Shown: positions 587 through 10,852, numbered from the stretch's first letter. The stretch is DNA of 26,835 bases from an uncultured bacterium (GCA_964534375.1 CAZHPN010000072.1:1-26835), one strand, 5' to 3'. Numbers and translations are program-made. The notes: a model not told the origin generated them from the sequence alone.

Positions 587-1864
587 ATGAAAAAATCCGC
601 CCCTCGTAAACGCCTATGGATCTGGCTGACCGTCGGCATCGCGCTCGCCGCGGCGATCGGCGCCGGCGTATACTATTTCACCGGCGAAAAACCGGCGGCG
701 ATTCAGCTCGACAAAGTGACGCGCGGCCAACTGTCGCAGATCGTCACCGCCTCCGGCCGCGCCAATCCGGCGATCAAAGTCGAAATCAGCGCCAATATCT
801 CGGCGGAAATCCGCAAACTCTACGTGAAGGAAGGCGATCGCGTCGCCAAAGACCAGCCGTTGGTCCTGCTCGACAGCCGGCGCTACGAGGCGAGCAACTC
901 GCAGTCGCTGGCCGCCATGCGGGCCGCGGCGGCGCAGGTCCGCCTCGCGGCGGCCAACGCCGATCTCGCCGCAAAAACGAGAGAGCGGCAAACCGAGTTA
1001 TTCAAACAGAATATGACGAGCAAGGAAGCGCTCGACACGGCCGAGACGCAGCATGACGTCGCGACCGCCACGCTGGAAGCGGCGCGCCACGCCGTGTCGC
1101 AGGCCGAGGCCGCGCTCAACGTCACGAGCGACGATTTGTCGAAGACGCTGATCCGCTCGCCGATGGACGGCGTCATCACGCGCCTGCCGAAACAGGAAGG
1201 TGAAATGGCCATCGGCAACATGTTCACACGCGACGTGATCATGGATGTTTCCAACCCGAACGAAATCGAAGCCACGGTCGACGTGGACGAGGCCGATGTC
1301 GCCTCGCTGAAAATCGGCAACGCGGCGACGGTCAAGATCGACGCCCTGCCGGGCAAAAAATTCGACGGCAAAGTCATCGAAATCGCCGGCAGCGCAAAAA
1401 TCAACCAACTCGGCACCCAGGAGCAGACCGTCAGCTTCGAGGTCAAGGTGCTGCTGTCCGGCGACACCGCCGCGATCCGCCCGGGCATGAGCGCCACCGC
1501 CGAGATTGTCACCGCGACCAAGGAAGACGTGCTGCAGGCGCCGATCCAGTGCGTCACGATGCGCGACCCCGAAGCGCTCGCAAAACTCGCCGACAAAAAG
1601 CACAAGAAAACCGGCGGCGACGCCGACCTTGGCATCAGCAGCGATATGAACAAGATGAAAGAAATGGTGTTCGCCGTCCGCGACGGCCGGGTGCAGCCGA
1701 TCTGGGTGAAGCCCGGCATCAGTTCCGACACTCACATCGAACTGACCGGCGACGGCCTCGCCGAAGGCCAGGAGTTGGCCTGCGGACCGTTCAAGACCGT
1801 GAATCGCGAGTTGAAGCCGGGAGACAGGGTAGAAGTGAAGGCGGAGAAGGGACCGGGGAAGTAG
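587..1864 (+). CDS. Efflux RND/ABC transporter periplasmic adaptor (MacA/HlyD-like membrane fusion protein)
   Basis: N-terminal TM anchor, lipoyl-like halves (LYVKEGDRVAKDQPL, IRSPMDGVI), alpha-helical hairpin, VDEADV and IRPGMSA motifs. Confidence 0.93.
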   Translation: MKKSAPRKRLWIWLTVGIALAAAIGAGVYYFTGEKPAAIQLDKVTRGQLSQIVTASGRANPAIKVEISANISAEIRKLYVKEGDRVAKDQPLVLLDSRRYEASNSQSLAAMRAAAAQVRLAAANADLAAKTRERQTELFKQNMTSKEALDTAETQHDVATATLEAARHAVSQAEAALNVTSDDLSKTLIRSPMDGVITRLPKQEGEMAIGNMFTRDVIMDVSNPNEIEATVDVDEADVASLKIGNAATVKIDALPGKKFDGKVIEIAGSAKINQLGTQEQTVSFEVKVLLSGDTAAIRPGMSATAEIVTATKEDVLQAPIQCVTMRDPEALAKLADKKHKKTGGDADLGISSDMNKMKEMVFAVRDGRVQPIWVKPGISSDTHIELTGDGLAEGQELACGPFKTVNRELKPGDRVEVKAEKGPGK

Positions 1865-1887
1865 TCAGTAGACAGTAGCCAGTAGTT
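1860..1887 (+). repeat. Heptamer tandem array A (AGTAGNN x4) overlapping the adaptor gene stop codon
   Basis: AGTAGTC AGTAGAC AGTAGCC AGTAGTT; TAG stop at 1862-1864 lies inside unit 1. Confidence 0.9.
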
Positions 1888-1968
1888 GCACGCGGACGCT
1901 GGTCGCAGAGGCAAAGATGAATAAGTCGTCAAATTTTTATTTTGGCGACCAATTCTCGCGGACAAATG

Positions 1969-1998
1969 CTGACTACTGACTACTGATTCCTGGCTACT
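1969..1998 (-). repeat. Heptamer tandem array B, inverted relative to A
   Basis: CTGACTA CTGACTA CTGATTC CTGGCTA CT; reverse complement matches array A. Confidence 0.88.
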
Positions 1999-2017
1999 CA
2001 CCCCTCAAGGAGCCAAC

Positions 2018-2383
2018 ATGGGCGAGAGGTCGAAGAGATTTCAGGACGTGCCCGTGTGGCAAAAAGCGCACACGTTTGTATTGCGCATATATGAAGTTTC
2101 GGCCGGGTTTCCCAAGACCGAAACATACGGGCTCACCTCTCAGCTTCGCCGATCCGCCGTCTCAATCGCCGCAAACATCGCCGAAGGGTTTCGCAAGCGG
2201 TCGCGGTTGGACAAGACGCGCTTCTACAATATTGCGCAAGGCTCACTCGAAGAAACACGTTATTATCTAATTCTCGCCCACGACTTGGGCTATTGCGATT
2301 CCGAAGACCTGCACGCGTTTCTCGACGAAGTGAGCAAATTGCTCGAAGCGTACTCACGAGCTGTCGCCAATGCGCACTCCTAA
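2018..2383 (+). CDS. Four helix bundle protein (23S rRNA intervening-sequence protein family, TIGR02436-like)
   Basis: Signature FQDVPVWQKAH...FPKTETYGLTSQLRRSAVSIAANIAEGF...FYNIAQGSLEETRYYLILAHDLGY; RBS AAGGAG at 2007-2012. Confidence 0.95.
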   Translation: MGERSKRFQDVPVWQKAHTFVLRIYEVSAGFPKTETYGLTSQLRRSAVSIAANIAEGFRKRSRLDKTRFYNIAQGSLEETRYYLILAHDLGYCDSEDLHAFLDEVSKLLEAYSRAVANAHS

Positions 2384-2444
2384 GCCCGTGGTCGCCGCGC
2401 CCAATCTGGCGGTCGCCATTCCCCCGCGCCGCCCGGCGCGCGTC

Positions 2445-2476
2445 CTACTGACTACTGCCTACTGCCTACTGTCTAC
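2445..2476 (-). repeat. Heptamer tandem array C (CTACTGN x4.5), direct to B and inverted to A
   Basis: CTACTGA CTACTGC CTACTGC CTACTGT CTAC. Confidence 0.9.
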
Positions 2477-2494
2477 GGCCCCCGGAGCCTTCCC

Positions 2495-3187
2495 GTGCCC
2501 CTGATTGAATGCCGCGATCTTCGCAAGAACTACCAAATGGGCGGCGAGACCGTGCACGCCCTGAAGGGCCTCAACCTGGCCATCGAAAAGGGCGAATACG
2601 TGGCGATCATGGGGCCGTCCGGCTCCGGCAAATCGACGCTGATGAACATGCTCGGCTGCCTCGATACGCCGTCCGCAGGCGCATACCTGCTCGATGGCGA
2701 GCGCGTCGATGAAATGACCGACGACGAACTTGCCGACATCCGCAACATGAAGATCGGCTTCGTTTTTCAAACGTTCAATTTGCTCGCGCGCGCCACCGCC
2801 CAGGCCAACGTCGAGTTGCCGCTGATTTACGCCGGCGTCCCGGCGCACGAGCGCCGCGTGCGCGCGCGGGACGCGCTGGCCAAGGTGGGACTGGCCGACC
2901 GCGTCGGGCACCGGCCGAATGAAATGTCGGGCGGCGAGCGCCAGCGGGTGGCGATGGCCCGCGCCTTTGTGACCGAGCCGCAATTGATTTTGGCCGACGA
3001 GCCGACAGGCAACCTCGACACGCACACCAGTTGGGAAATCATGGACTTGCTGAAGGACATTCACGCGCGCGGCAACACGATCATTCTGGTGACGCACGAG
3101 GATGACATCAGCCGCTACGCCCGGCGCATTGTGCGGCTGCGCGACGGCGTCGTGGAAACCGACGCGCCGAACGCCGACCCGAAATGA
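2495..3187 (+). CDS. ABC transporter ATP-binding protein (MacB/LolD family)
   Basis: Walker [10 protein letters not shown], signature MSGGERQR, Walker [13 protein letters not shown]-loop VTHE; GTG start with GGAG RBS. Confidence 0.96.
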
Positions 3188-4401
3188 CCCGCTGGCGCGA
3201 CATCTTCGTCATGGCGTTGTCCGCGTTGCGGGCGAATTCGATGCGTTCGCTCTTGACGACGCTGGGCATCGTCATCGGCATTACGACGATTATCGCGATC
3301 GTGTCGATTGTCGCCGGCCTCAACTACTCGTTCGCGAACCAGCTTTCGGCGATCGGCCAGGGCGTGCTGTACGTGCAGAAATTTCCCTGGGCGAGCAACG
3401 ATTGGCGCAAGTTCCGCGCGTATCCCGACATTTACTGGAAGGAATATTACGCCATCGCGGGCGAGGCGACGGGCGTCGCCGGCCTCAGCCCGCTGCTGAG
3501 CGACATGAAGACGATCAAGTTCGAGGACCGCAAGATCGAGCGCATTCAGGTGCTCGGCGTCAACGAGCAGTACGCGATCATCCGCAACGTGTTCCCCGAG
3601 ACGGGCCGCAATTTCACGGCGCTGGACGTGGCGCATGGCCGCTATGTTTGCATTCTGGGCTACGAGGTGGCGGAGCGGCTGTTCGGCCTGCGCGACCCGA
3701 TCGGCCGCCGCATTCGCATCGGCGAAAACTCGTTCGAGGTGATCGGCGTCATTTCCAAGCGCGGGGATTTCTTCGACCAGAACCTCGACCAGTTCGTCAT
3801 GCTGCCGCACACGGTTTTCGTGAAGACGATTCGCGCCGAGCGGCGCTATTTCTCGATCGGCGTCAAGGTCGCCGACACGACCCAAATCGGCGTGGTCAAA
3901 GAACAGATCCGCGGCATTCTGCGGCGCGTCCGCAAAGTGCCGTTCAACAAGCCCGACAATTTTTCGATCAACGAGGTCGATCTCTTGCGCGACCTGTACG
4001 AGAAATTGACCGGCGGCCTTTACGCGGCGATGTTCGCCGTCGCCGGCATTTCGCTGCTGGTCGGCGGCATCGGCATCATGAACATCATGCTGGTTTCCGT
4101 CACCGAACGGACGCGCGAAATCGGCGTGCGCAAAGCGCTCGGCGCGCGGCGGCGTTCGATTCTGCTGCAATTCCTGTTCGAAGCGATGCTGATTTCATCG
4201 GCCGGCGGCGTGCTCGGCGTGCTGCTCGGCGCTCTCGCGGCGCATTTGGTCGATCGCTTCACCTCGCTGCCCGCGCGGGTCGAAACGTGGAGCGCGGTGC
4301 TCGGCCTGGCGTTTTCCAGCGCCGTCGGGATTTTCTTCGGGCTGTTCCCGGCGCGCGCGGCGGCGAAGAAGGATCCGATTGAAGCTCTTCGTTACGAGTA
4401 G
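3184..4401 (+). CDS. ABC transporter permease (MacB-PCD/FtsX family)
   Basis: [53 protein letters not shown] overlap with the ATPase. Confidence 0.95.
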
Positions 4402-4496
4402 GGGCGCTGCTTGCTGCGCCCACCTTCGGCCGCGCCTCGCGCGGGCGAGCGCCAATCGCCAAACCGCGATCGGGGCGCGGCAAGCGGCGCCCCTAC
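4398..4496. repeat. GTAG-family REP inverted doublet (REPIN/BIME-like)
   Basis: GTAGGGGCGCTGCTTGCTGCGCCC (4398-4421) and GGGCGCGGCAAGCGGCGCCCCTAC (4473-4496): 24-bp inverted repeats with 2 mismatches, each an internal palindrome with a GTAG head. Confidence 0.85.
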
Positions 4497-4518
4497 GCAC
4501 GGAATTTCGGGGCCCACA

Positions 4519-5775
4519 ATGACCCCGAAGCGCCTCAAACGCCGCATCAGCCTGATCGAGAACTTCATAATCGCCCTGCGGTCGATCGGCTCGGCGAAGT
4601 TGCGCGCGGGGCTGACGAGCCTGGGCATTATCATCGGCGTCGCCACGGTCATTTCGATGATGACCATTGTCGGCGGAATCGATCAGATCGTCGTCAAGGA
4701 ATTTTCGCGCGTCGGCGCCGACGTGTTCATCCTGCAAAAATATCCGGCGATCGCGATCACGATGGATTGGAACAAGTTCCGCAATCGCAAAGACCTCAAG
4801 CTCGAAGACGCGGAGGCGATCAAGCGCGCCTGCCCGTCGATCGATTTGGTCAGCCCCATCGTCTACAACTGGATGGGCGACGTCGTGCGCGGCGAAGGCC
4901 GCAAGACCGACGCCGACGTGCAAATCGCTTCGGTCACCGACAGCTACCTCGCCGTGGCCGGCCAGAGCCTCGACCTCGGCCGCAATTTCACGCCGCAGGA
5001 GTCGGCCGACGGCACGCGCGTCGCGATCCTCGGCTACGACATCATGGAAAAGCTCTTCCCCTACGGGAGTCCGATCGACCGTTACCTGATGGTGCACGGC
5101 GACCGCTTCCGCATCATCGGCCTCGCCGAGCGGCAGGGCGCCATTTTCGGCGAAAGCCGCGACAATTTCGTGGCCATCCCGCTAGCGGCTTACACGCGAA
5201 AGTGGGAAATCAAAGACCTGATGAACATTTACCTGAAGGCGAAAAAAGGCGCGTCGGTCGAGGCGGCGATGGACGAAGTGCGCGGCGTGATGCGCGTCCG
5301 GCACAAGCTCAAGCTGACCGACCCGGACGATTTCGAACTCGTCACGCGCGACAGCCTGATGAACACCTACCAGAGCCTGACCGGCTCGATCTTCGTCGCG
5401 GCGATCGGGATTGCCGCCATTTCGCTGCTCGTCGGCGGCATCGGCATCATGAACATCATGCTGGTTTCGGTGCGCGAACGCACGCGCGAAATCGGCGTCC
5501 GCAAAGCGCTCGGCGCGCGGCGGCGCGACATCTCGCGGCAATTCCTGATCGAATCGATCACGCTGTCGTTGATCGGCGCCGCCGTCGGCATCGCGCTCGC
5601 GTTCGGCCTGCTCATGCTCGTGCGCAACCTCACGGACAAATTGCCGATTTCGTTTGCGGCGGACAGCGTTGTTCTCGCGGTCGGCTTCGCGGTGGCCGTC
5701 GGCGTGTTCTTCGGCGTCTACCCGGCCCGCAAGGCGGCGCTGCTCGATCCGATCGAGGCGCTACGGTATGAATAA
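4519..5775 (+). CDS. Second ABC transporter permease (MacB-PCD/FtsX family)
   Basis: Same motifs as the first permease; start moved from 4411 to ATG 4519 because the ORF extension runs through the REP doublet. Confidence 0.93.
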   Translation: MTPKRLKRRISLIENFIIALRSIGSAKLRAGLTSLGIIIGVATVISMMTIVGGIDQIVVKEFSRVGADVFILQKYPAIAITMDWNKFRNRKDLKLEDAEAIKRACPSIDLVSPIVYNWMGDVVRGEGRKTDADVQIASVTDSYLAVAGQSLDLGRNFTPQESADGTRVAILGYDIMEKLFPYGSPIDRYLMVHGDRFRIIGLAERQGAIFGESRDNFVAIPLAAYTRKWEIKDLMNIYLKAKKGASVEAAMDEVRGVMRVRHKLKLTDPDDFELVTRDSLMNTYQSLTGSIFVAAIGIAAISLLVGGIGIMNIMLVSVRERTREIGVRKALGARRRDISRQFLIESITLSLIGAAVGIALAFGLLMLVRNLTDKLPISFAADSVVLAVGFAVAVGVFFGVYPARKAALLDPIEALRYE

Positions 5776-5842: not shown

Positions 5843-6697
5843 TCAGATCCCCTGCTGGTCGACCCATTCGCGAAAGAGCGCCAGGATCCGTCGCGACATG
5901 GGTCCGGGGCGGCCGTCGCCGACCGCCCGGCCGTCGATGCGCACCACCGGCATCACCTCGGTCGTGGTTCCGGACAGAAAGACTTCGTCCGCGGCCATCA
6001 TTTGTGTCTGGGACACGGCTTTCTCGACAACTTTCAATCCCGAGTCCCGCATCAAGCGCAGCCAGGCGTTACGCGTGACGCCCGACAAAATGCGTTCGTT
6101 CGCCGGGTGCGTCCAAACGGCGCCGTCGCACACGACGAACAAGTTGGCGGCCGTGGCCTCCCGCGCCTCGCCGTCGGGGCCGATGAAAATGGCTTCGAAG
6201 CAATCCTGTTCGCAGGCGTCCTGTTTCGCCAGACAATTCGGCAACAGGTTGATGGTTTTGATGTCCACCCGGCCCCACCGGTTGTCCGGGCGGGTCAGGC
6301 AGGCGACGCCGTCCGCGAAAAACTGGGGCGACAGCGGGTGCAGTTCCCGCACGGTGATCACGACGTTCGGCGCGACGGGCGGCTGCGGAAACGCGTGGTT
6401 GCGGGGGGCCGCCCCGCGCGTGATTTGCAGGTAGATCTTGGCGTCGGCCAACGCCGCGGCATTGCAGAGGCGGTGAATTTCCGCGGCGACCGGCGGCATC
6501 GCCACGTCGCTCATCCGCACCTGGTCGAGGCTGCGCCGCAGCCGCGCCAGATGCTCGTCGAGAAACAGAAGTTTGCCGCGGCGCGCGACGATCACCTCGT
6601 ACACGCCGTCGCCGAGCAGAAAGCCGCGGTCGTCAATTGAAATGCACGCCTCGCCGATCGGCGAAATCTTTCCGTTTACCGACGCCAGTTCGGGCAT
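5843..6697 (-). CDS. dat: PLP-dependent class IV aminotransferase (D-amino-acid transaminase-like)
   Basis: DRGFLLGDGVYEV, YLQITRG, R-H-FP motif, catalytic IKTINLL, ILSGVTR, DEVFLSGTTTEVMPV. Confidence 0.85.
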   Translation of the reverse strand: MPELASVNGKISPIGEACISIDDRGFLLGDGVYEVIVARRGKLLFLDEHLARLRRSLDQVRMSDVAMPPVAAEIHRLCNAAALADAKIYLQITRGAAPRNHAFPQPPVAPNVVITVRELHPLSPQFFADGVACLTRPDNRWGRVDIKTINLLPNCLAKQDACEQDCFEAIFIGPDGEAREATAANLFVVCDGAVWTHPANERILSGVTRNAWLRLMRDSGLKVVEKAVSQTQMMAADEVFLSGTTTEVMPVVRIDGRAVGDGRPGPMSRRILALFREWVDQQGI

Positions 6698-6845: not shown

Positions 6846-6974
6846 CGCGGCCTTGACGATCTGCGCAAAACACGCAATAAGAGTCGTGCGACTCTTGGTT
6901 GTCTGACAAAAACGAATTGGCACGCCACTCAATTTTCCCCTGGAGCGTCTCTAGCGCCCAAGCGAGGAGCCGTA
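6846..6974 (+). promoter_or_regulatory. Upstream regulatory region of lipoprotein 1 (duplicated at about 8456-8584)
   Basis: TTGACG at 6853, palindromes AAGAGTCG-TG-CGACTCTT (6879-6896) and TTGTC-T-GACAA (6899-6909), RBS GAGGAG; aligns with the copy before lipoprotein 2. Confidence 0.55.
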
Positions 6975-8336
6975 ATGAAGACTACCCCCCTAGTGTTGGC
7001 AATTTTACTTTGCCTCGTTCTCGCGGCGGCCGGCGTCGCGGGTTGCGCGACGAGCAGCAGCAGCAGCAGCAAGGGCGACGATGACGTCACCCCGGCGGAT
7101 GACGACGACAACGACAACGACGACGCCACCCCGGACGACGACGACGACGCCTCGCCTGACGACGACGACAACGACGACAATGACGCGTCCCCGGATGACG
7201 ACGACAACGACGACAACGACGCGAGCCCGGACGACGACGACGACGACGATGACGATTCCTCCCCCATCGAGATCATTCTTGACGACGGCAGCGCGAATAC
7301 CGGCGTCTATATGAGCGCCGCCAACACGGATCTGGTGCAGGGCTTCTTCCTCAAGCATCACCCGGCGAAACTTTTGTCCGCGCAGATTTACGTGTTCGGC
7401 ACGCAGGGCGCGACGAATCAGGTGGAGCTCGTCGTCTACTATTCCACGGCCACCAAGGGAACGGGGCCGGGGTCGACCACTCCGGTCTACTTATCCGCCC
7501 CGTTCACCGTGGCGACGACGGACGGCTGGAATGAGTTCGATCTGAGCGACGTCGTGGAACTGCAAACGCCCGTCGCAACCGGGGAACTCTACGTCGGCTT
7601 CGCCTACACGGTGGCCGGCACTGGCCCCTCGATCGGGCTCGATGAACAGGGTCTGCCGAACAACGACGCGTGGTATCAAGGCGGCGGCACGTGGTACAAC
7701 GTCGACGCGAACGCCGGTTACCCCGGCGTGCTGATGGTGCGCCCGACCGTCGAATACGAAGGCTCCGGCGACGACGACACGACCGACGATGACGACGACA
7801 ACGACGACGACGACGACTCGTCGCCGGCCGATGACGACGCCACCCCGGTGATCGGCTACGCCACGGGGGACACCATGCCGGACTTCACCGAGATGTCCAA
7901 CAGCGGCGCCAACGTCTCGTTGACCGATTTCAAGGGCAAAATCATTTTGCTCGACTCGTCGGCTATGTGGTGCCCGGGATGCAAAGCCGAGACACCGGAC
8001 CTCGAGACCGAATTCTACACGCCCTATCAAGACACCGGCCCCGGGTTGATGGTCCTGCAATTGCTCGGCCAAGACGTGTCGGGCAACACGCCGACCGTCG
8101 CCGAAATGCAATCGTGGGCGACGACCTACGGCCTGACCTTCCCCGTGCTCGCGGACGCGGATTGGAAGGTCGGCGGCCCGATCGGCGACAACCTGATTCC
8201 GTTCTATTGGGTTCTCGATTCGAACCTCAAGATCGTCGCAAAGTCGGATGACCCCGACACGGGCTGCGCGCAAAACCATTGCATGCTGTCATATTTCCTG
8301 CCGATCGTCCAAAAGCTTTTGGGCGTGGACGAATAG
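6975..8336 (+). CDS. Lipoprotein: Asp-rich linker, central putative beta-sandwich domain, Asp-rich linker, C-terminal TlpA/redoxin domain (WCPGC)
   Basis: RBS GAGGAG; lipobox VAGC; SPDDDDND repeats; PDFT...VSLTDFKGKIILLDSSAMWCPGC and IPFYWVLD of a thioredoxin-like redoxin. Confidence 0.88.
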   Translation: MKTTPLVLAILLCLVLAAAGVAGCATSSSSSSKGDDDVTPADDDDNDNDDATPDDDDDASPDDDDNDDNDASPDDDDNDDNDASPDDDDDDDDDSSPIEIILDDGSANTGVYMSAANTDLVQGFFLKHHPAKLLSAQIYVFGTQGATNQVELVVYYSTATKGTGPGSTTPVYLSAPFTVATTDGWNEFDLSDVVELQTPVATGELYVGFAYTVAGTGPSIGLDEQGLPNNDAWYQGGGTWYNVDANAGYPGVLMVRPTVEYEGSGDDDTTDDDDDNDDDDDSSPADDDATPVIGYATGDTMPDFTEMSNSGANVSLTDFKGKIILLDSSAMWCPGCKAETPDLETEFYTPYQDTGPGLMVLQLLGQDVSGNTPTVAEMQSWATTYGLTFPVLADADWKVGGPIGDNLIPFYWVLDSNLKIVAKSDDPDTGCAQNHCMLSYFLPIVQKLLGVDE

Positions 8337-8370
8337 GGCCGGCAAGCGAGGCGATTTCGCAAAACTCCAG

Positions 8371-8400
8371 GGCGGGCCGAGCGGCCCGCCTTTCTTGTTT
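8371..8400 (+). terminator. Rho-independent terminator
   Basis: GGCGGGCCG-AG-CGGCCCGCC followed by TTTCTTGTTT. Confidence 0.8.
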
Positions 8401-8584
8401 CGAACGAAAGGCCCCGACGCGTTCGCGTTCGCACGCGGTCTGCTCGATCGGCGACCGCGGCCTTGACGGACTTTTGCAAACACGCGATAAATTCCTCGCG
8501 ACTTTTGGCTGTCTGACAGCAGAGAAATGGCGGTTCATTCAATGTATGCCTGAGGCGTTTCTGGCGCCCAAACGAGGAGCCGTA

Positions 8585-9877
8585 ATGAAAAACACTCGAC
8601 TGGTCCTGGCATTTTTGCTTTTCGTCGTGATGGCGGCCGCCGTCGTCGCCGGTTGCGCGACGAGCAGCAGCAGCAGCAGTAAGGCCGATGACGACGTGAC
8701 TCCGTCGGACGACGACGACAACGACAACGACGACGACGCCTCGCCGGTCGACGACGATGCGAGCCCGGACGACGACGACAACGACAACGACGACAACGAC
8801 GATACGAGCCCGGTCGACGACGACAACGACGACAACGACGACAACGACGACGCGTCCCCCGCGGCCAGTTGCAATCTGGTGGCCCAGGACGTGGTCGGAA
8901 CCTGCAGCGTCGTGCTGAAAGACCTGCAGGGGAATCAGATCAATCAGTCGGGCGTGGACGACTGGTGCGGCTTGTGCGACGACTTGTTCGGCGGGGGGAC
9001 GACCGTGAGTTCCCCATTCTGGAACTGCATGAACGCCTGTGCGGTCGGCCAATCTTGCAATGCGGCGTGCTTCAACGGTTGCACCGCGCCGCCCGATCCC
9101 GGCGGGACGGGCTGCAATCACACGGTCTACGGGATCTATTCGTGCGGCGTCGTCTTCTCGTTCCTCGACACCTACTACATGGTGCCGGAAATGGACGAGG
9201 CGCTCGACTGCCCGAATGCGACGTCGATGCCGTGGCCCTGCTACCAGACGTGCGTGAACAACAACCCCTGCTCCAACCCGCCGACGAACGCTCAGGCCAA
9301 TGCGTTGATCGCCTGCATGAACAAGTGCCCGGCGGCCGACGATGACGACGACGACAACGACGACACGTCGCCGGCCGACGACGACGCCACTCCGATCGTC
9401 GGGTACGCCACCGGCGACACGATGCCGAACTTCATCGAGATGTCCAACAGCGGCGTCAACGTCTCGCTGAGCGATTACAAGGGCAAGGTCATTTTGCTTG
9501 ACTCGTCCGCCATGTGGTGCCCCGTCTGCAAAGCCGAGACGCCGGATCTGCAGTCGGAATTCTACGGGCCGTATCAAAACACCGGACCAGGTTTGATGGT
9601 GCTTCAACTGATCGGCGAGGACGTGGCCGGCAATACGCCGACCGTCGCCGAACTGGAAAACTGGGCGACGACTTACGGCTTGACGTTCCCGATCCTCGCC
9701 GATCCGGATTGGCGCGTGGGCGGCCCGATCGGCAACAACGAGATTCCGTTCTACTGGGTTCTCGACACGAACCTGAAGATTGTCGCGAAGTCGAGCGACG
9801 GCGGCAACGATTATCCGCTGTCGTACTTCCTGCCCATCGTGCAAGAGTTGCTGGGCGTGGACGACGACTCGCAATAA
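8585..9877 (+). CDS. Paralogous lipoprotein: Asp-rich linker, Cys-rich central domain, Asp-rich linker, TlpA/redoxin domain (WCPVC)
   Basis: RBS GAGGAG; lipobox VAGC; N- and C-terminal parts closely similar to 6975..8336, central part unrelated and Cys-rich. Confidence 0.88.
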   Translation: MKNTRLVLAFLLFVVMAAAVVAGCATSSSSSSKADDDVTPSDDDDNDNDDDASPVDDDASPDDDDNDNDDNDDTSPVDDDNDDNDDNDDASPAASCNLVAQDVVGTCSVVLKDLQGNQINQSGVDDWCGLCDDLFGGGTTVSSPFWNCMNACAVGQSCNAACFNGCTAPPDPGGTGCNHTVYGIYSCGVVFSFLDTYYMVPEMDEALDCPNATSMPWPCYQTCVNNNPCSNPPTNAQANALIACMNKCPAADDDDDDNDDTSPADDDATPIVGYATGDTMPNFIEMSNSGVNVSLSDYKGKVILLDSSAMWCPVCKAETPDLQSEFYGPYQNTGPGLMVLQLIGEDVAGNTPTVAELENWATTYGLTFPILADPDWRVGGPIGNNEIPFYWVLDTNLKIVAKSSDGGNDYPLSYFLPIVQELLGVDDDSQ

Positions 9878-9902
9878 ACGCCTCGATCTCGTAAAACGCC
9901 GG

Positions 9903-9930
9903 GGCGGGCCGAGCGGCCCGCCTTTTTTTT
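9903..9930 (+). terminator. Rho-independent terminator, hairpin identical to the one at 8371
   Basis: GGCGGGCCGAGCGGCCCGCC followed by T8. Confidence 0.88.
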
Positions 9931-10093: not shown

Positions 10094-10852
10094 ATGTGGC
10101 GTTTATATTGCGCGGTGTTGGCCGTGGCGGCGGCGTCGGCGACGGCCTTGATTCTGGCGGCTTGCGGCGCGGGCTATCAGAACAGCGCCAGCGGCGGCGG
10201 CGGCGGTTCGTGCATCAATTGCGACACCACGTCCGACTGCAGCCAGGCGATGGGACAGGGCTGGGCCTGCGAGGACGGCTGCTGCGAGCAAGTCTCGTCG
10301 TGCCAAGCGGTCTTTGACGAGGCATACCAAGATTGTTCGCTGACGGAGACCGATGAAAATGGAAATCCCATACCAGAATCCGAGGTCGTGCAAGAGTGCC
10401 AGAACAATGCCGACGACAACGGCCTCAGCGGCCCGTATGCCGCGTGCATCATTAATTATTGGGGTGATTGCGACGCCATGCAAACGTGTCTCGAAAATGT
10501 GCCGCCGAGCGACGATGACGACGACAACGATGACGACAATGACAATGACGACGACAACGACACCGCGGCGCCGACCTGCCAGAGCGTGTACGACCAGTTG
10601 TACACCGTGTGCAGCTTCCAGTTCCACGACGGCAGCGGCAATCCGATTCCGGAATCGACGATCGTCGCCGATTGCGAAGCCGGCAATTTGTGCTACGAGC
10701 TTACCGGCAGCATCGCCGAGTGCGTCACCAACAACTGGGCCAATTGCACGAACATCGAGGCCTGCATCGCCGGACACCTTCCCTGCGGCGACGACGACGA
10801 TAACGACGACAACGACGACAATGACGACAACGACGTGTCGCCGGGCGCCTAA
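10094..10852 (+). CDS. Cys-rich, Asp-rich lipoprotein with two internal repeats
   Basis: RBS AGGAGG; lipobox LAAC; two copies of C-x10-C-x5-D-x2-GNPIPES-x5-C separated by a DDDND tract. Confidence 0.8.
   Translation: MWRLYCAVLAVAAASATALILAACGAGYQNSASGGGGGSCINCDTTSDCSQAMGQGWACEDGCCEQVSSCQAVFDEAYQDCSLTETDENGNPIPESEVVQECQNNADDNGLSGPYAACIINYWGDCDAMQTCLENVPPSDDDDDNDDDNDNDDDNDTAAPTCQSVYDQLYTVCSFQFHDGSGNPIPESTIVADCEAGNLCYELTGSIAECVTNNWANCTNIEACIAGHLPCGDDDDNDDNDDNDDNDVSPGA

Follow-up and report, generated by a model that had tools for sequence, protein, structure and literature searches.

Genes A and B are two adjacent plus-strand genes on a stretch of 26,835 nucleotides of DNA from an uncultured bacterium (GCA_964534375.1 CAZHPN010000072.1:1-26835), which is called the window here and to which all coordinates given without a contig name refer. 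They are paralogous, presumably separately transcribed genes that arose when an entire transcription unit was duplicated in tandem. It is likely that both code for lipid-anchored oxidoreductases of the ResA/TlpA type which carry, between a shared N-terminus and a shared redoxin domain, different passenger modules bounded by tracts of Asp and Asn codons. The pair is one local case of a module-mixing design of exported proteins that extends over the genome and the phylum. The genome to which the window belongs is labelled G000, those of its relatives G001, G003, G004 and G012, and contigs are given as C-numbers.

Tandem duplication of an entire transcription unit

When the proteins of gene A (6975-8336, plus strand, 453 amino acids) and gene B (8585-9877, plus strand, 430 amino acids) were compared by BLASTP, the N-termini shared 47 of 61 residues (77%) and the redoxin ends 133 of 172 (77%), and the middles gave no alignment; the middle of A has no Cys and that of B has 17. 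At the DNA level two blocks of homology were found, a 5' block of 78% identity (6846-7221 against 8456-8840) and a 3' block of 79% identity (7791-8396 against 9338-9928), so that the duplicated unit runs from about 130 nt 5' of the start codon through the terminator. In both proteins a hydrophobic signal is closed by the lipobox V-A-G-C, with a run of Ser behind Cys24, a fit to the pattern [LVI][ASTVI][GAS]C by which A and B are predicted substrates of signal peptidase II. The terminator-like hairpins of the two genes (8369-8392 and 9901-9924) have the same stem-loop, followed by a run of T. These observations agree with the initial annotation, which had described a duplication of the whole unit (upstream region, lipobox and Ser run, Asp linkers, redoxin and hairpin) around middles that differ entirely.

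Homology between the two genes ends and begins again at the Asp/Asn tracts, as had been noticed at the outset. The repeat GACGACGACAAC is found at 7101, 7161, 7197, 7791, 8711, 8771, 8816 and 9347; in A the 3' block begins at 7791 itself, in B 9 nt ahead of 9347, and the 5' block stops 13 nt past the tracts at 7197 in A and 8816 in B. Because the tracts are of low complexity, these breakpoints are resolved only to positions inside the linkers. The regions upstream of the two genes (6846-6974 and 8456-8584) are identical in 94 of 129 bases (73%) without a gap, and no further copy of this 129-nt region was found in the genome. This identity of non-coding DNA exceeds the synonymous-site identity of the genes (43-55%), which points to conservation of a regulatory leader. 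There is a TTGACG box, although the promoter scan called no site.

The features of the locus are as follows.

5843..6697, minus strand: gene for a class IV aminotransferase (Pfam Aminotran_4, E 1.4e-50), by which the locus is anchored in synteny; it adjoins the redoxin array also in G004, G001 and G003
6846..6974, plus strand: duplicated upstream region of A with ribosome-binding site (94/129 identical to 8456-8584)
6975..7046, plus strand: A signal peptide with lipobox V-A-G-C and Cys24 (translation, Cys positions)
7074..7265, plus strand: A Asp/Asn tether (linker 1), amino acids 34-97 (tract finder, amino acids 39-97; repeat families D1 and D2)
7266..7766, plus strand: A middle module, a Cys-free, predicted lectin-like beta-sandwich, amino acids 98-264 (AF2 model, VIA match)
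7767..7847, plus strand: A second Asp/Asn linker, about 27 amino acids (tract finder; 3' homology block from 7791)
7848..8336, plus strand: A predicted ResA/TlpA-type redoxin and stop codon, WCPGC at 7971-7982 (Pfam Redoxin, AhpC-TSA)
8369..8392, plus strand: A terminator-like hairpin (10-pair stem with 8 G-C pairs, then a T run; fold)
8456..8584, plus strand: duplicated upstream region of B (DNA alignment to A upstream)
8585..8656, plus strand: B signal peptide with lipobox V-A-G-C and Cys24 (translation, Cys positions)
8684..8860, plus strand: B Asp/Asn tether (linker 1), amino acids 34-92 (tracts at amino acids 39-54 and 56-92)
8861..9328, plus strand: B middle module, predicted all-helical, 17 Cys of which 16 are conserved, amino acids 93-248 (AF2 model)
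9329..9394, plus strand: B second Asp/Asn linker, about 22 amino acids (tract finder; homology block from 9338)
9395..9877, plus strand: B predicted ResA/TlpA-type redoxin and stop codon, WCPVC at 9518-9529 (Pfam AhpC-TSA, Redoxin; PDB ResA 4nmu)
9901..9924, plus strand: B terminator-like hairpin, stem-loop as in A (repeat D8, inverted repeat I5)
10094..10852, plus strand: gene C, coding for a lipoprotein whose two small Cys-rich modules have Asp/Asn tracts between them and at the end, outside the duplicate (translation, tract finder)

Upstream of the locus, the window at 587-5775 holds genes for an HlyD-type adaptor, an ABC ATPase and two MacB/FtsX-type permeases.

The redoxin domain and the middle modules

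The C-terminal domains score above the Pfam cut-offs of both Redoxin (PF08534; 55.4 bits for A and 46.5 for B, cut-off 26.6) and AhpC-TSA (PF00578; 52.6 and 53.6 bits, cut-off 26). Thirty-two PDB chains were matched at E <= 0.001, and the closest solved structures are ResA chains (4nmu, E 2.4e-12). Residues W50, C51, C54 and P127 are invariant in all 10 aligned relatives; in the TlpA/ResA-like family, a conserved Pro loop facing the active site has the cis-Pro role. From this pattern the domain is filed as a presumed ResA/TlpA-like thiol:disulfide oxidoreductase that is none of the named orthologues. The possibility of a peroxiredoxin was considered and rejected: strict AhpC/TSA peroxiredoxins have the peroxidatic Cys in the motif P-x3-T/S-x2-C, which A and B do not match, with S-S-A-M-W ahead of a first Cys that is itself part of WCxxC.

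As for possible partners, two proteins of 760 and 831 amino acids (on C87 and C118) are over the cut-off for DsbD_TM, each with a C-terminal thioredoxin-like part containing WCxxC, and one DsbA-like protein was found. No match to DsbB or VKOR was obtained in this 94%-complete assembly of a genome that exports many disulfide-rich modules, and no MsrAB partner gene was seen among the ORFs (open reading frames) of the window.

In relatives, the first Cys of WCxxC is specified by a TGA codon, after which the frame continues (W-U-x-x-C), in 4 of the 22 redoxin domains examined; such loci are L012 (G004:C83), L013 (G003:C155) and L024 (G003:C20). Since SelA was also found in all four genomes checked, the family seems to toggle between selenocysteine and cysteine. 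The five redoxin copies of G000 have Cys at this position, with Arg in one of them: the second propeller-redoxin (G000:C10:22-585) reads W-R-R-Y-C where its counterpart on C181 reads W-C-L-Y-C, at 91% DNA identity. Either inactivation of this copy or an error in the sequence may account for the difference; contig C10 begins within the propeller and linker ahead of that redoxin.

The middle of A was modelled as a beta-sandwich (AF2, pLDDT 94.4). In structure comparison it matched the lectin-like domain of Cwp84 over 151 of 172 residues (4ci7_B, VIA Z 15.5, root-mean-square deviation 2.5 A; Foldseek E 2e-4) at a sequence identity of 9-10%, and 4d59_A with Z 14.4, the match extending over the whole domain (residues 332-497); the next VIA matches were phage tail modules (Z 10-13.6) and lectin and CBM32/35 folds (about Z 7). 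On the strength of this model, the A module is classed as a predicted Cwp84-type lectin-like beta-sandwich, and it is probably a binding or positioning module. The region matches no Pfam family, and a word-index protein search returned only the query itself. When 1.84 billion representatives were searched exhaustively, the module turned up in 36 proteins of several architectures, and in the 18 that were read it stands alone behind signal and tether, before a poly-Asp tail that ends in Gly-Cys-Gly-Cys, or after propeller-like domains. One other copy, 44% identical, is present in the genome. C-termini made of a poly-Asp stretch and Gly-Cys-Gly-Cys (or -Ala) were also seen at C8:8005-10248, C38:20155-21537 and C311:1871-3601 and in P0002, P0010 and P0015.

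The middle of B was modelled as eight helices (AF2, pLDDT 92.3). No similar solved fold was found (Foldseek best E 3.5; exhaustive VIA best Z 3.5), Pfam held nothing, and the ESM Atlas gave no usable match. The module may be a new disulfide-rich fold, a suggestion that the missing Foldseek and VIA matches do not by themselves establish. There are 14 copies in 13 ORFs of the genome, across which 16 Cys columns are conserved, and the best identity of the B module to any other copy is 60%. The copies are found alone, doubled, behind papain-like peptidases, beside propellers or Cys-rich repeats and, once, with a redoxin, and they are always bounded by tracts. The module was found in 8 of 17 phylum genomes; the word-index protein search gave a single relative of 58% identity and 516 amino acids, probably from the same assembly. 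Its 17th Cys forms a W-C-x-x-C in a helix (residues 128-131 of B, 8966-8977); the second Cys of this motif is present in 5 of the 14 genome copies, the others having Ser, Thr or Asp, and the motif may provide a pair of reactive thiols in addition to eight structural disulfides.

The proposal that the two middles are diverged homologues was rejected. Their profile-profile probability is 0.1% (hhalign), and the structures predicted for the separate modules, as the initial annotation had recommended, are all-beta for A and all-alpha for B. Some 20 other ORFs also contain the small module of gene C (about 70 amino acids), which is a remote relative of the N-terminal third of the B module (hhalign probability 76%, E 2.3e-5). 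A lipoprotein with small Cys modules lies just 3' of a redoxin twice, as gene C after B and at C10:1891-2904 between two redoxin copies. As far as our searches reach, modules of the A and B types are first defined here: no description of them, or of poly-Asp inter-domain linkers, was found in the literature searched, and the words lipoprotein, thioredoxin and cysteine-rich are absent from the available passages of PMC9324843.

History of the locus and a possible role of the Asp/Asn tracts

The genome contains five close redoxin paralogues: A, B, a copy on C181 and two on C10. The C181 redoxin lies behind a beta-propeller, of which a second copy, 91% identical, is at the start of C10; the other C10 copy is a plain lipoprotein redoxin with no tether. 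The same redoxin is therefore joined to a lectin-like module, a Cys-rich module, a beta-propeller (two copies) or none, and other middles on the redoxin scaffold, which it had been proposed to look for, do exist. In a tree of 21 redoxin domains, from which one G004 domain was left out, the five paralogues form a clade (96/92) in which A and B are sisters (99/96). In public collections, a single-sequence search with the redoxin found no relative and an alignment search returned 80 loci.

The order aminotransferase, redoxin array, orf13943 and GT2 is kept in three other genera of the family. At this syntenic locus there are three redoxin genes in G004, two in G001 and one in G003, and five of these six consist of signal, tether and redoxin only; the tether of the remaining gene, in G001, contains a small Cys domain. 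Domain combinations are consequently not fixed across genera. In G000, gene C and a histidine-kinase gene are also inserted between the array and orf13943; none of G004, G001 and G003 has gene C at this locus. Because the sister genera mostly have no middle module, A and B appear to have gained theirs each within a tether: the ancestor was probably a signal-tether-redoxin gene, of which the whole unit was duplicated before a different module was gained in each copy. The locus would then be a series from tether only, through a tether with a small Cys domain, to a tether with a lectin-like or a 16-Cys module. Independent insertion into the tether fits these genera better than the swapping of middles that was suggested at first, which is now doubtful.

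Tracts of this kind are a property of the whole genome. They are found in 401 of 64,321 stop-to-stop ORFs of at least 50 amino acids, to a total of 562 tracts with a median length of 21 and a maximum of 185 amino acids; GAC makes up 48% of their codons, and a lipobox-like motif stands ahead of the first tract in 261 of the 401 ORFs. Exact 24-mers in tracts are common to 340 ORFs and exact 30-mers to 247, and the longest exact matches of the A and B linkers elsewhere in the genome are 40-44 nt for the tethers and 31-34 nt for the second linkers. The 24-nt codon pattern D3-N-D4 is present in 16 of 17 phylum genomes, the exception being 84% complete; it was found once, in one of 24 outgroup genomes, and reversed controls gave 0.

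A body of evidence bears on the idea, put forward in the initial annotation, that the tracts act as recombination joints. On the redoxin scaffold, modules are always joined at tracts. In 145 gene pairs there are 171 ends of homology that fall inside both genes; 46 of these are no more than 30 nt from a tract in each of the two genes, where 4.6 were expected, and 72 are that near to a tract in at least one gene, where 50.7 were expected; alignments of at least 150 nt outside tracts were required, and the A/B pair was excluded by the overlap filter. A first version of this statistic (210 observed, 22.9 expected) was dropped, many of its alignments being tract against tract. In a tandem pair of propeller lipoproteins (C171:5705-8625), the upstream region, signal and tether are 88-100% identical and the propeller domain beyond them 52-77%, which is the signature of a recent exchange that ended at the tether. 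Furthermore, C332:1029-2747 and C344:162-2009 are 83% identical over about 800 nt (a long upstream stretch, signal and tether) and have unrelated passengers, a propeller and a Cys-containing repeated domain, respectively. Exact matches of 24-44 nt are near the minimum length for homologous recombination in E. coli. That the GAC/AAC tracts themselves served as in-frame recombination sites is suggested by these sequence patterns with a probability that falls slightly short of even, and it is not proven for A and B. A wider proposal, in which the tracts are frame-preserving recombination joints throughout the phylum and the spread of the 16-Cys module, together with an expanded set of tethered redoxins that alternate between Sec and Cys and with no DsbB or VKOR detected, would reflect a pathway of oxidative folding not yet described, is more tentative still.

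Several observations weigh against the picture of paralogous ResA/TlpA-type enzymes with passengers gained at tracts. The role of the redoxin is assigned by family membership, and its scores remain far below the cut-offs of the named families: 47 and 51.4 bits against 170 for ResA (NCBIfam NF002854), 27.4 and 25.6 against 230 for TlpA (NF047696), 14-17 against 123-359 for DsbE (TIGR00385/NF011941) and 20-22 against 210 for StoA (NF041202). For neither A nor B did the promoter scan detect a sigma-70-like site in the upstream region. Outside its own genome the redoxin tree is an unresolved polytomy, and gain rather than loss of modules is argued by parsimony over four genera. A lectin-like module with a redoxin is also present, on a short contig, in G012, which belongs to another family, so that this architecture could be old. 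The contigs of public runs are short and all break in tracts, none of them crossing the linkers. As for the joints, domain boundaries coincide with linkers and paralogue families are not independent, which confounds the homology-end statistic, and the mosaic pair on C171 is a single example.

The competing explanation with the strongest claim is that the tracts are tolerated spacers, illegitimate recombination taking place anywhere and only insertions into spacers surviving selection. Selection alone predicts breakpoints at domain boundaries, the flanks of A and B show no recent exchange (78% and 79% identity, with the dS values given below), and no possible donor of the B module is more than 60% identical to it, so that no trace of the event is left. 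The fall of identity on C171 just past the tether marks, however, a recent exchange that ended at a tract, and exact in-frame matches of 24-44 nt are common to hundreds of tracts; we regard passive linkers as possible but somewhat improbable. It is a good deal less probable that an ancestral gene had several modules and that the sister genera lost one or more middles by deletion between the two linkers. Such deletion between similar tracts is mechanistically easy, and the pairing in G012 would be expected from it, but the tether-only form of five of the six syntenic redoxin genes argues against it. So does G012 itself, whose redoxin lies outside the clade of the G000 paralogues and whose module is 36% identical to that of A, where free-standing copies reach 44-48%; in the trees made for each domain, as had been recommended, the redoxin paralogues form one clade and the G012 module is not sister to the A module, the latter with weak support. 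Likewise, none of the 11 loci of relatives with a B-module ORF, among 13 loci read, combines that module with a redoxin.

Programmed diversification, in which a cassette system would rapidly swap surface modules on the redoxin in the manner of antigenic-variation cassettes, was the reading of the initial annotation, and a constant scaffold with variable middles flanked by repeated tracts does resemble such a system. The duplication of A and B is nevertheless old and both flanks are under purifying selection: the rate of synonymous substitution (dS) is 0.69 over 159 codons of the redoxin, with a ratio of nonsynonymous to synonymous rates (dN/dS) of 0.19, and 1.05 over the first 40 codons, with a ratio of 0.10. 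There is no near-identical silent donor (at best 60% for the B module, and 44% for the other copy of the A module), and a Pfam scan of 18 ORFs of the window, 6 of them without a hit, revealed no recombinase, invertase or reverse transcriptase. Rapid swapping is thus not supported by the age of the duplication, the selection on its flanks and the distance of the B module from its other copies, and the tracts, being spread over genome and phylum, are not peculiar to this locus. Six public sequencing runs contain part of the stretch; in the four wetland metagenome runs that were compared, one of them possibly the source sample, the longest of the listed contig pieces that cover the unique parts showed 0 differences and the contigs broke in tracts. 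Contig joints from these runs, with sides of less than 40 nt inside repeats, were judged uninformative and set aside. We therefore consider a cassette system very improbable, and we think equally little of the possibility that the contig was mis-joined at repeated tracts and that the fusions of module and redoxin are not real. The assembly does consist of 381 contigs, many of which end in tracts, and the public contigs (k=31) all break there. The exact matches of the linkers, of 40-44 nt in the tethers and 31-34 nt in the second linkers, are however below read length, the second linkers are only about 50-80 nt long, and the reading frame, the style of the linkers and the duplicated flanks fit together. 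A chimera is unlikely, because a read is longer than any of these exact repeats and because lectin-like module plus redoxin, one of the two architectures, was assembled independently in G012.

Possible function and relation to known systems

If A and B are tethered oxidoreductases with separate passengers, their layout would be a lipid anchor at Cys24, a long acidic tether that is probably disordered, the passenger module, a second linker and the WCPxC redoxin, with modules drawn from a phylum-wide pool of exported, tract-bounded modules. The anchor would keep the protein at the membrane, and the tether of about 60 residues would let the folded parts reach outward. The redoxin would most likely be kept reduced by the DsbD-type proteins of the genome, and it may reduce or isomerise disulfides, or act on other oxidised Cys or Met targets, in the envelope, substrates that are themselves presumed. 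The middle module would set the place or the target, in A by binding a glycan or surface polymer and in B by protein contact. The expanded set of tethered redoxins may also serve disulfide formation or shuffling, because the genome exports many disulfide-rich modules and yet neither DsbB nor VKOR was detected.

Proteins of the ResA/TlpA/CcmG (DsbE) group, for example Bacillus ResA (4nmu, 1st9), resemble A and B in the thioredoxin-like fold family, WCxxC and the Pro loop, in being exported and membrane-tethered, and in having a DsbD/CcdA-type electron donor in the genome. A and B differ from them by the lipid anchor, the Asp/Asn tether of about 60 residues and the folded module before the redoxin, and by their position in tandem arrays beside an aminotransferase gene and not in a cytochrome c maturation operon. 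Among the PDB matches of the redoxin are the thioredoxin-family chains 4hqs, 2yp6 and 4hqz (E 2e-8 to 7e-8), which we take to be Etrx1/2. To our knowledge, the Etrx proteins have neither an acidic tether nor a passenger module. In the parts of the account available to us, Etrx1 and Etrx2 of Streptococcus pneumoniae are, like A and B, paralogous outward-facing lipoprotein redoxins (PMC3914529).

Linkers behind the anchoring Cys have been described before. According to the available part of one study, outer-membrane lipoproteins of E. coli require disordered N-terminal linkers for Lol trafficking, and these share with the tethers of A and B a disordered stretch right behind the lipid-anchor Cys (10.1101/2021.01.05.425367). 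Compared with the linkers in that part of the study, those reported here are nearly pure Asp/Asn, are written in GAC/AAC repeats, and occur also between domains and at C-termini, in about 400 genes. In modular glycoside hydrolases and cellulosomal proteins, low-complexity linkers rich in Pro/Thr or in Ser stand between independently folding modules, a design comparable to that produced by exon shuffling in eukaryotes. The tracts of this phylum differ from glycoside hydrolase linkers in being acidic, phylum-wide and built on a codon-periodic DNA repeat that keeps the frame and is a possible substrate for recombination. The lectin-like domain of Cwp84 from Clostridioides difficile (4ci7, 4d59) has the beta-sandwich fold predicted for the A module and is carried by a cysteine protease, where the A module is carried by a redoxin. 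The new elements of the present system are the acidic, codon-periodic inter-domain joint, the two modules and the stepwise series at one locus.

For the annotation of these genomes, it follows that the label TlpA family protein covers very different proteins. In two genomes a Cwp84-like module is joined to a thiol-disulfide enzyme, and neither tree indicates that the two fusions have a common origin (weak support); the predicted 16-Cys helical domain is restricted to the phylum as far as searches reach (17 phylum genomes). The mixing of modules joined at tracts could be a bacterial counterpart of exon shuffling. If the tracts are indeed joints, the building of new multi-domain surface proteins by bacteria could be followed in this lineage as a natural experiment, for which the redoxin locus would supply a dated series of intermediate forms.

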